Part shown: positions 31,787-33,242 of the stretch, in pieces
How positions within the stretch are numbered: position 1 is the first letter of the stretch
How the letters are laid out: the number at the start of each line of letters is the position of its first letter
NCBI GenBank assembly: GCA_019636845.1
Contig: JAHBWV010000002.1
Coordinates: 35,655-99,654 of the forward strand
Reading direction: 5' to 3'
Source of the DNA: Phycisphaeraceae bacterium
Lineage (GTDB): Bacteria; Planctomycetota; Phycisphaerae; Phycisphaerales; UBA1924
DNA: 64,000 nt
Program-made: the position numbers and the translations under genes
Notes under the pieces: generated by a model
What the model was told of the DNA's origin: nothing
The model's input: only the letters and a program-made list of their open reading frames with translations
The model's database searches: none

Positions 31787-32305
31787 ATGAGCACGATCAC
31801 GAATCCGAACATCGCAGGGCTGAGCACCGTCGCTTCGCCCGTTGCACCCGCTCAGATCGAGCGTCCCCTCCGCACCGCGGTCCCCGCAGACAAGCACGGG
31901 TGGTGGTGGGGAACGGGCCGCCGCAAGACGGCGATCGCCCGCTGCCGCATGAAGGCCGCGAAAGAGGGACAGGGGACCGTCAAGGTCCAGGTCACCGACA
32001 AGCGCTTCAAGGCGATCGAGGAGTACTTCTGCGAGTTCCGCGACCGCGCCGACGCGACCTCTCCCCTCACGGTCACCAAGACCGCAGGGAAGTTCGACAT
32101 CGTCCTTCGCATGTCGGGCGGCGGCTTCATGGGCCAGGCCCAGGCCGCCCGGCTCGCCATCGCCCGCGCCCTCCGCGACTACGACCCCACCCTTGAAGGC
32201 GCGCTCCGCGAGCACGGCATGCTGACCCGCGACGCCCGCGAGGTCGAGCGCAAGAAGTACGGCCTGGCCGGCGCCCGCCGTCGCTTCCAGTTCTCCAAGC
32301 GCTGA
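31787..32305 (+). CDS. rpsI: 30S ribosomal protein S9 (about 40-aa N-terminal extension)
   Basis: GTGRRKTAIARCRM...GGGFMGQAQAARLAIARAL...LTRDAREVERKKYGLAGARRRFQFSKR. Confidence 0.92.
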   Translation: MSTITNPNIAGLSTVASPVAPAQIERPLRTAVPADKHGWWWGTGRRKTAIARCRMKAAKEGQGTVKVQVTDKRFKAIEEYFCEFRDRADATSPLTVTKTAGKFDIVLRMSGGGFMGQAQAARLAIARALRDYDPTLEGALREHGMLTRDAREVERKKYGLAGARRRFQFSKR

Positions 32306-32311
32306 TCCTCT

Positions 32312-32336
32312 GGTGGCACCGCTCTCCAGAGCGGTG
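32312..32336. repeat. Palindromic REP-like element, family A
   Basis: GGTGGCACCGCTCTCCAGAGCGGTG is a 9-bp perfect inverted repeat (CACCGCTCT/AGAGCGGTG). It lies 7 nt after the rpsI stop. Confidence 0.55.
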
Positions 32337-32361
32337 TTCCCTATCCGAAGCACACACCACC

Positions 32362-32398
32362 GATGCCCGTGCGATCTCGCGCGGGCATCGTTTCATTT
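32362..32398 (+). terminator. Rho-independent terminator of rplM-rpsI
   Basis: The stem pairs GATGCCCG (32362-32369) with CGGGCATC (32382-32389) and is followed by GTTTCATTT. Confidence 0.65.
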
Positions 32399-32450
32399 CG
32401 GGAGACGGCGTGTCGGTGTGTTGCTCGTCTCCCGTACCATTCGCCCCGTG

Positions 32451-33242
32451 ATGTCCGACCCGCTCCATGCTCAGTCGCTCCACGCCAGGGCTCGGCGCGT
32501 GCGCCGGTTGCGGCGGTGGGCGGTGGGTGTGGGGCTCGGGGTGGCGGCTGCGATCACCGTCGGGTGGATCGTGGTGGGCTCGATGCTGCGTGCCGCGCCG
32601 CCCTGGTGGAGGCAGGTGCGCTTGCAGGAGCAGCGGACGCACGAGATCGCAACAGAGGTTGAGAACGCGATCGGAACACATCTTCACCTTGCGCGTGAGG
32701 GAGAGAAGAAACCCGACGGCGTCTGGCGGAGCGAGCCGTGGGGCGTCTCGATTCCGTCGTCGGATGCGAACGCGTGGCTGAACGCGAGATTGCCGAAATG
32801 GCTGGAAACGATGGACGCGGGGTTTGAGCTGCCTCGGCTGGTCTCGGAGGTTCAGGTCGAGTTCCGCGATGGGCGGATCTCGATCGGCGGGGCGTCGGCG
32901 GGATCGGGCGAGAAGGGGGGTGGAGGCGAGGGTGAGCGGCGGATTCTTTGGGCGTCGGCGAGCGCGACGGTCGAGCCGGGGGGCGCGCTGGTGGTGGTGC
33001 TCGATCGGGTGTACGTCGGGCGGCTGCCGATCTCGCGCGGGGTGCTGGTGCAGGTGGTGGAGCGGACGGGGCTTGGGAAGGGGGAGGGTTCGGAGGCGTG
33101 GAAGGAGTTGCTGCGCGGGCGCGAGGTGCGGGTCGAGCCGGTGATGAAGCTGGAGGATGGGCGTCGGGTTCGGGTGAAGGGCCTGCGGGCGCGCGAGGGG
33201 AAGTTAGAGGTCACGTGCGTGACGGAGCATGGGGTCGGGTGA
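32451..33242 (+). CDS. Hypothetical membrane-anchored protein
   Basis: It has an Arg-rich N-terminus and one TM helix (WAVGVGLGVAAAITVGWIVVGSML). The start is ATG 32451 within ORF 32313-33242. Its last ~24 codons are duplicated at 34279-34350. Confidence 0.6.
   Translation: MSDPLHAQSLHARARRVRRLRRWAVGVGLGVAAAITVGWIVVGSMLRAAPPWWRQVRLQEQRTHEIATEVENAIGTHLHLAREGEKKPDGVWRSEPWGVSIPSSDANAWLNARLPKWLETMDAGFELPRLVSEVQVEFRDGRISIGGASAGSGEKGGGGEGERRILWASASATVEPGGALVVVLDRVYVGRLPISRGVLVQVVERTGLGKGEGSEAWKELLRGREVRVEPVMKLEDGRRVRVKGLRAREGKLEVTCVTEHGVG

Follow-up and report, generated by a model that had tools for sequence, protein, structure and literature searches.

We analysed a window of 64,000 nucleotides from a Phycisphaeraceae bacterium (the whole stretch, positions 35,655 to 99,654 of contig JAHBWV010000002.1, assembly GCA_019636845.1), together with the corresponding loci of its relatives, inspected over +/-10 kb. 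The window carries dnaA on its left and dnaN on its right and, between them, the ribosomal protein genes rplM and rpsI followed by the gene g32313. At this site the plus strand switches from C-rich to G-rich. An earlier reading made from the letters alone (the sequence-only reading) had noticed the switch and considered that it might mark a replication origin; the genes that it had named (dnaA, gatA, CPBP, rplM, rpsI, bamA, dnaN, mutM, MoxR, kinase, tkt, GT4, sulfotransferases, flippase and an EEP-family gene) were correctly identified. The features on which the analysis is built are the following.

1-30982: left arm, a C-rich and A-rich domain of the plus strand, defined by skew, third-position skew and substitution spectrum; its genes are VKOR-DsbA, Rrf2, P-type ATPase, MBL hydrolase, dnaA, mutM, tatC, sigma/anti-sigma/PDZ, MoxR, gatCA, CPBP, a RAYT (repetitive extragenic palindrome-associated tyrosine) transposase and g29933
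7375-8838, plus strand: dnaA, with the Pfam domains Bac_DnaA and Bac_DnaA_C; 487 amino acids (aa) according to the annotation in close relatives; protein P0001 is 98% identical
30983-32450, plus strand: transition zone, made of the rplM upstream region, rplM (31287-31724), rpsI (31787-32305) and a 145-bp spacer; skew about -0.05, near neutral
32451-64000: right arm, a G-rich and T-rich domain of the plus strand, defined by the same three properties; its genes are g32313, bamA, dnaN, tkt, a GT4 glycosyltransferase, sulfotransferases, a flippase, the EEP-family gene and gmk
39236-40372, minus strand: dnaN, diverging from tkt

Strand composition on the two arms

The GC skew of the plus strand, computed in 2-kb windows, ranged from -0.12 to -0.27 at 1-15 and 24-32 kb and from +0.09 to +0.31 at 32-64 kb. 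In the same windows the AT skew had the opposite sign on both arms. Since it flips the other way, G and T are co-enriched on the plus strand of the right arm, as predicted for a leading strand. Genes were called by their third-position GC content, and the third-position skew of each gene was computed and expressed on the plus strand. It was positive for 19/19 credible genes of the right arm (+0.17 to +0.59), on either gene strand, and negative for 16/16 credible genes of the left arm outside 15.6-24 kb (-0.02 to -0.56). Genes are present in both orientations on both arms. The windowed skew thus changes sign near 32.3 kb, where the sequence-only reading had placed the switch, with a change point at 32,486, and it does so regardless of gene strand, as had been claimed. 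The uniformity that the same reading assumed for the left arm did not hold: between 15.6 and 24 kb the skew is weak or positive (+0.0 to +0.22) within the C-rich arm. This island coincides with the following feature.

16350-25132: inverted segment, from kinase-WD40 through DUF3465 and MoxR, reversed relative to the related genomes L154 and L155

Both relatives are collinear with the window over 3.5-15.4 kb, but their alignment runs in the opposite sense over 20.2-25.15 kb. The inverted 16-25 kb segment accounts for the island; within it the skew of MoxR is already typical of the arm and that of the kinase is not. The position of the island in the inversion (about 16.3-25.1 kb) indicates that local inversions leave skew reversals in this lineage.

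The polarity of the junction, from negative to positive on the plus strand, is of the origin type. We calibrated it on four contigs of relatives with a dnaA-DnaA boxes-dnaN layout (L090, L098, L100 and L101), where the skew goes from negative to positive exactly at the boxes, so that the usual leading-strand skew rule is valid in relatives of this genome. An unusual behaviour of skew, also raised by the sequence-only reading, was not found: GC skew, AT skew and the excess of C<->T differences on the G-rich strand are all orthodox. The strand bias of the lineage is very strong, with third-position skews of about +/-0.5 and a 4-5-fold asymmetry between G<->T and A<->C. The junction is also linked to replication genes, dnaA lying 23.5 kb to its left and dnaN 7 kb to its right. 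These data suggest that the junction is probably a fork-divergence (origin) boundary between the two replichores of a Phycisphaeraceae chromosome.

The same data bear on a replication terminus, or a reversed skew polarity in this lineage, which would read the junction the other way round. The genes on either side converge on the junction, and the site is hypervariable, a frequent trait of terminus regions. Against this, the polarity runs from negative to positive, G and T are co-enriched, C<->T is in excess on the G-rich strand, the canonical dnaA-oriC-dnaN contigs of relatives share this polarity at their DnaA boxes, and dnaA and dnaN are near. The convergence of genes, for its part, carries no weight at a gene strand bias of 0.50. 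The fraction of genes on the leading strand is 0.502 in Planctomycetes, the lowest of any phylum in a published comparison (PMC4613354); as these bacteria have no leading-strand gene bias, convergent core genes are uninformative on replication direction. Among 42 related genomes, 11 carry rplM-rpsI itself on the C-rich strand and 7 carry it on the G-rich strand. The head-on core genes that had been listed as an anomaly are therefore not one. The positive-to-negative change expected of a terminus was not seen; dif sites were not searched for, and a published survey predicted no dif in the sole Planctomycetes genome that it examined (PMC3025954). We regard a terminus or a reversed polarity as very improbable.

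In the surroundings of dnaN, neither a skew change nor DnaA boxes were found, and the dnaN-tkt spacer was rejected as an origin. In a relative with the same gene block (L157:15786-19265) the skew goes from positive to negative at the divergent dnaN-tkt spacer, with a cumulative maximum at 17,377.

Position of the boundary and content of the spacer

The minimum of the cumulative G-C curve coincided with the maximum-likelihood change point at 32,486, with an interval of 32,472-32,515 at 2 log-likelihood units and of 32,361-32,528 at 5 units. Part of the sharpness claimed for the change, within about 150 bp, is only apparent, because rplM-rpsI is compositionally damped. In a regression over 35 related genomes in which the operon lies inside uniform-skew domains, its own skew was 0.48 times that of the flank with an offset of -0.06 to -0.07, and the values in the window (-0.01 for rplM, -0.09 for rpsI) fall between those predicted for the two domains. 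The end of the C-rich domain is consequently demonstrable only within 30,982-32,486, and the true domain boundary lies in, or adjoins, 30983-32450; its placement is no finer than about 29-32.5 kb. Skew profiles running from zero to positive, considered as a sign of an origin, were rejected, as the negative offset in the composition of rplM-rpsI gives rise to them.

The spacer, the gene that follows it and the repeated element that it shares with other parts of the window are described below; REP stands for repetitive extragenic palindrome.

32306-32450, plus strand: rpsI-g32313 spacer, 145 bp, with a REP-like hairpin at 32312-32340, a terminator at 32361-32390 followed by a T-rich tail, and a third hairpin at 32400-32433
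32451-33242: g32313, encoding a conserved hypothetical membrane protein that has a transmembrane segment at its N terminus and belongs to no Pfam family
11150, 19266, 29654 and 32315: REP copies, consensus GGCACCGCTCTCCAGAGCGG; a degenerate copy lies at 31087

The sequence-only reading had described the spacer as holding only a REP hairpin and a terminator. Both are present, the intrinsic terminator having a 13-bp stem, but the third hairpin had been missed; with these three stable hairpins the fold reaches z = -4.7. The REP-like hairpin family has 5 matches in the window against 0.3 expected. Apart from REP copies, a repeat search around the junction returned only coding repeats in g29933 and a 73-nt duplication around a 1.1-kb cassette. 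Scans for transfer RNA genes and Rfam families gave no matches. In most Phycisphaerales g32313 directly follows rpsI, and 79/79 homologues found were without a name or just 'hypothetical'.

The 73-nt direct repeats (33171-33243 and 34279-34351, 82% identical) duplicate the 3' end of g32313. The cassette that they flank has a GC content of about 0.60 and two minus-strand open reading frames (ORFs; 130 and 186 aa, no Pfam match), and it is missing in strain L002.

Other stretches were considered as origins and rejected. The region 30,983-31,286 is GC-rich and consists of a REP and the rplM leader, 29,596-29,932 contains a sigma-70-like promoter for g29933, and 28,778-29,148 is a purine-rich tract beside the RAYT gene. 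The low-GC cassette at 33.2-34.7 kb has one DnaA-like box and lies 1.8 kb inside the G-rich arm. Across the whole 64 kb, 200-bp windows fall below 52% GC at about 56.2 kb only; this region (56.1-56.6 kb) has the lowest GC content of the window, yet the skew is positive on both its sides.

Gene order, substitution spectra and rearrangements

The DnaA and g32313 proteins of the window match accessions MBX3318125 and MBX3318148. The same junction and flip were present in separate assemblies of the same species (L001, L002, L003 and L004), with a C-rich left flank in L001, L002 and L003; in all, at least six independent assemblies or samples contain the junction. On CP075368.1, the closed 3.80-Mb chromosome of a close relative (DnaA QYK47696, g32313 QYK47718, dnaN at about 3.113 Mb), 21 genes separate dnaA from g32313 as in the window, a spacing inferred from accession numbers. 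A chimera of two unrelated contigs would find some ground in the metagenomic nature of the sequence and in the REP element at the joint. The recovery from independent assemblies and the consistent spacing on the closed chromosome indicate that the junction is not a misassembly, and we give a chimera a practically negligible probability.

Gene order was followed by tblastn of the window proteins against 80 rpsI loci of GTDB species representatives. CPBP (minus) and rplM (plus) are adjacent in 48 of these loci, and the order rpsI-g32313-...-bamA(-)-dnaN(-)-tkt(+) recurs in many genera. As read from these comparisons, the order CPBP-rplM-rpsI-g32313 is ancestral in Phycisphaerales. An inversion ending there cannot produce a sign change within an ancestral order; a change of replication direction is needed. 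Many Phycisphaerales have dnaA and/or dnaN no more than 10 kb away from rplM-rpsI. Across 42 informative loci, the skew was negative on both sides in 11, positive on both sides in 7, clearly negative to positive in 3 and clearly positive to negative in 0. An origin at the 3' end of rpsI conserved across genera was rejected, the skew being uniform across the locus in most genera.

Substitution spectra were obtained by counting differences on the plus strand against relatives about 85-98% identical to the window. The counts are unpolarised: L001, L002 and L003 are nearly identical to one another, which makes three-strain polarisation impossible. Most comparisons used KF912 (GCA_019636705.1), a relative of roughly 93% identity, with 90-95% across the regions shared with the right arm of the window.

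1-8.8 kb against KF912: C<->T 100, G<->A 169, A<->C 90, G<->T 24
9.0-15.4 kb against KF912: C<->T 127, G<->A 167, A<->C 97, G<->T 50
9.0-11.0 kb against KF912: C<->T 62, G<->A 65, A<->C 20, G<->T 29
23-29 kb against L001: C<->T 17, G<->A 39, A<->C 15, G<->T 6
32.5-50.5 kb (right arm) against KF912: C<->T 304, G<->A 184, A<->C 49, G<->T 232

The two arms have mirror-image spectra: on the left plus strand G<->A differences outnumber C<->T, and A<->C differences outnumber G<->T. That C<->T is the rarer class on the C-rich arm despite the excess of C indicates that the skew is maintained and not decaying. Contrary to the expectation for a breakpoint, the spectra of both arms keep their own skew, although with unpolarised counts this equilibrium check is a partial test. 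Mirror-image, skew-maintaining spectra argue against a fossil scar and against a terminus. The exception is 9.0-11.0 kb, 85% identical to KF912, where the spectrum is roughly symmetric; the left-arm spectrum is clear again from 11.2 kb rightwards. The transition zone shows right-arm-like transitions against KF912 (C<->T 34, G<->A 19). The transversion asymmetry against KF912 (L152, L165) is 4.7 to 1 for G<->T:A<->C on the G-rich strand and 3.75 to 1 in the reverse sense on the C-rich strand; the transition asymmetry is weaker, about 1.7 to 1.

The DNA immediately left of rplM is variable.

28778-30982: hypervariable insertion hotspot between CPBP and rplM, with a Y1 transposase at 29149-29595, a REP copy at 29654 and g29933 at 29933-30982

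The gene at 29149-29595 encodes a REP-associated Y1 (IS200-like) transposase, the RAYT of the list above. The cassettes between CPBP and rplM differ by strain: RAYT and g29933 in the window, an extra insertion sequence (IS) of the IS110 type in L001, a methylase and helix-turn-helix (HTH) cassette in L002. The lineage-specific ORF g29933 (349 aa, no Pfam match) is absent from KF912 and from other genera; it contains three in-frame 35-nt repeats of 10-nt subunits (CCGTGGCCCTC...), inverted partial copies of which lie upstream of CPBP (28828-28861).

In KF912, the DNA left of rplM is unrelated to that of the window (LepA, an MFS transporter, a RAYT gene and a REP array) and strongly G-rich, with skews of +0.2 to +0.36 and third-position skews up to about +0.5. 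From 31008 onwards the sequence is again orthologous to the window, and dnaA is on a separate contig. This arrangement is known from one fully inspected contig. Since the CPBP-rplM adjacency is ancestral, KF912 represents a derived state. Its REP array (L167:7290-7950) is long and made of a REP unit different from that of the window. Among the differences between the two rpsI genes, the window has C and KF912 G or T at 21 sites, and the reverse holds at 4 (25 sites in all), a bias of direction that fits with rpsI of KF912 being now replicated in the opposite direction. From the terminator hairpin to the start codon of g32313 the spacer is nearly identical in the window and in KF912, with flanks about 90% identical. 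As it is almost unchanged in a genome that shows no switch, it is unlikely to be an autonomous origin, and from this comparison the 145-bp spacer is probably not the origin determinant. In KLAP126, the nearest other species, gmk lies directly upstream of g32313, an order that fits an inversion of about 28 kb, spanning g32313 to gmk and broken on its left side at rpsI|g32313; a weak minimum of cumulative skew is present at gmk|g32313.

These rearrangements give substance to another explanation, in which the junction is the edge of a large block inverted or translocated via REP/RAYT or IS elements and the origin lies outside the window. Mobile elements are at hand between CPBP and rplM (RAYT, REP copies, IS110 or methylase cassettes), synteny breaks at 31,008 in KF912 and between rpsI and g32313 in KLAP126, KF912 has no switch, and no origin motifs were found at the junction. 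The order across the switch is nevertheless the ancestral one (48 loci), which an inversion ending there would have destroyed; KF912 and KLAP126 are both derived states, the spectra are steady-state mirror images on the two arms, and dnaA and dnaN flank the site. We consider a large displaced block unlikely. The rearrangement breakpoint proposed by the sequence-only reading thus fails for this genome, with its ancestral adjacency, and applies to KF912 and KLAP126, which both break within the locus.

The oriC-like element beside dnaA and the probable origin of replication

Near-consensus DnaA boxes are enriched in the window (13 against 2.9 expected), and 7/13 lie within 7.0-15.3 kb. The strongest cluster (9.25-9.45 kb) falls in the spacer of 626 bp that separates dnaA from mutM, two convergent genes.

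8839-9464: oriC-like non-coding element, with DnaA boxes at 9412-9420, 9423-9431 and 9435-9443, a TCCACAAAGCGCCAG block, and a hairpin followed by a GAAGGAAGAAGAG purine run

This element, 0.4-0.6 kb long where conserved, was followed in 7 genomes, among them KF912, L154, L155, L013, L045 and L064, and is conserved in all of these. Its invariant motifs are TGTGGA/TCCACA, the TCCACAAAGCGCCAG block and the hairpin followed by the purine run; the stem sequence of the hairpin varies among genomes while its pairing is kept. The layout is the same as in the dnaA-oriC-dnaN spacers of L090 and L098. In another genus (L039:7080-7300) the spacer 3' of dnaA has CTGTGCC tandem repeats instead of the conserved element. 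The same genome carries a polypyrimidine (CTTCCT)n tract of 110 bp after the rpsI terminator (L039:10690-10800), together with an inserted gene of low GC content, and its skew flips one gene later.

In L064 and L090 the skew flips at the dnaA-linked element. In the window, KF912 (L152), L154 and L155, whose DnaA proteins are 98-72% identical, it is strongly negative to the left and to the right. The element of the window marks no flip of skew or of spectrum: the roughly symmetric 9.0-11.0 kb stretch lies to its right, and the left-arm spectrum resumes at 11.2-15.4 kb. With negative skew on both sides and a left-arm spectrum beyond it, the element looks, in this clade, like a remnant of the canonical origin or like a regulatory site for DnaA binding rather than the site of fork divergence.

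The element could instead be the true origin, in which case 9.4-31 kb would carry the wrong skew from a past rearrangement and the switch at about 32 kb would be a displaced scar. It is indeed the top DnaA-box cluster of the window, is conserved in 7 genomes, lies between convergent genes and hence is not a promoter, and has the canonical planctomycete architecture, at which the skew flips in L064 and L090; moreover, reversed skew can persist locally, as it does in the inverted 16-25 kb segment. But in the window, KF912, L154 and L155 the skew is equally negative to the left and to the right of the element, which makes the arrangement too old for an unrelaxed scar, and the skew of 9.4-31 kb is not attenuated. 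In recent substitutions, 11.2-15.4 and 23-29 kb retain the left-arm spectrum despite their excess of C, the reverse of what relaxation would give, and the segment is collinear with L064, whose same genes are weakly G-rich. A displaced scar also conflicts, as does a large inverted block, with the ancestral gene order. On this balance it appears quite unlikely.

We thus favour fork divergence at the junction as the probable explanation, with forks that would start within about 28.8-32.5 kb. To the right of the junction the plus strand would be leading-strand sequence and would gain G and T; to its left it would be lagging-strand sequence and would gain C and A. The spacer, which holds only the REP hairpin, the rpsI terminator and one further hairpin, would probably not be the initiating element, and the DnaA-box cluster 3' of dnaA would be a non-firing relic or a regulatory DnaA-binding site. 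A more specific proposal is that replication starts at a non-canonical site without DnaA boxes in the CPBP-rplM-rpsI-g32313 locus, the ancestral dnaA-linked oriC being a conserved non-firing relic 22 kb away; we hold this to be rather unlikely. The idea that the switch marks an origin is therefore upheld by the polarity, the proximity of dnaA and dnaN, the mirrored spectra and the calibration on canonical contigs, and it is not upheld for an initiating element at the spacer.

Several observations weigh against fork divergence at the junction. No 9-mer within 2 mismatches of the DnaA box TTATCCACA exists at 30.9-34.1 kb, and scans with 1 mismatch, with 2 mismatches and with a relaxed pattern gave zero sites at the junction; the sequence-only reading was right on this point, which remains a real puzzle. 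No AT-rich unwinding element was found at the junction, 300-bp sliding windows having 62-70% GC across 31.0-32.6 kb, and the 64-kb window has no site matching the parS consensus. A bona fide-looking oriC element stands beside dnaA, 22-23 kb from the junction. In KF912, rplM-rpsI-g32313 lies in uniformly G-rich DNA with no switch at rpsI|g32313, so that the local sequence from 31,008 rightwards is insufficient for a switch. The site is a hotspot of REP, RAYT and IS elements, with the synteny breakpoints of KF912 and KLAP126 within a 1.5-kb locus. Finally, at the scope of 64 kb and about 10 kb of relative loci, a large inverted block may formally be accommodated.

Origins that do not adjoin dnaA are known: oriC of E. 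coli lies about 40 kb from dnaA, and Cori of Caulobacter is another case. The window resembles them in having an origin-type switch tens of kb from dnaA with dnaA and dnaN nearby. Unlike the window, where none were found within about 1.5 kb of the switch, they have DnaA boxes and an AT-rich unwinding element. With the canonical dnaA-oriC-dnaN arrangement (Bacillus, Mycobacterium and the planctomycete-like L090 and L098) it shares the polarity and, in the element 3' of dnaA, the boxes, the hairpin and the purine run; it differs in the position of dnaN, which lies on the other strand at a distance of 30 kb, and in having no flip at the dnaA-linked element. DnaA-box clusters also occur outside oriC, as datA and DARS in E. 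coli and the DnaA-box clusters of B. subtilis. By analogy, the element at 8.84-9.46 kb might bind the initiator without origin activity, although it resembles a former origin more than a simple box array. Skew reversals caused by inversions have their counterpart in the 16-25 kb segment and in the breaks of sister genomes at the junction, whereas the main junction has an ancestral gene order and steady-state spectra. Chromosome replication independent of DnaA is known in some cyanobacteria and in endosymbionts lacking dnaA; the window is similar in its probable fork divergence without DnaA boxes and dissimilar in keeping an intact dnaA.

A literature search found no paper mapping a Phycisphaerae replication origin experimentally. 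The strong strand bias, combined with the lack of gene-orientation bias, makes fork direction readable from composition at near single-gene resolution. This resolution separates the probable point of fork divergence, exactly where close relatives are rearranged, from a conserved dnaA-linked oriC-like element. Were the non-canonical start correct, the origin would have been relocated or replaced at a rearrangement-prone locus rich in REP and RAYT, by a mechanism that may be independent of DnaA boxes. The separation of the boundary from the dnaA-linked element is a warning for origin predictors based on DnaA boxes near dnaA; if it is confirmed, the locus would be a natural and tractable example of an origin relocated or decayed within the Planctomycetes-Verrucomicrobia-Chlamydiae (PVC) superphylum.

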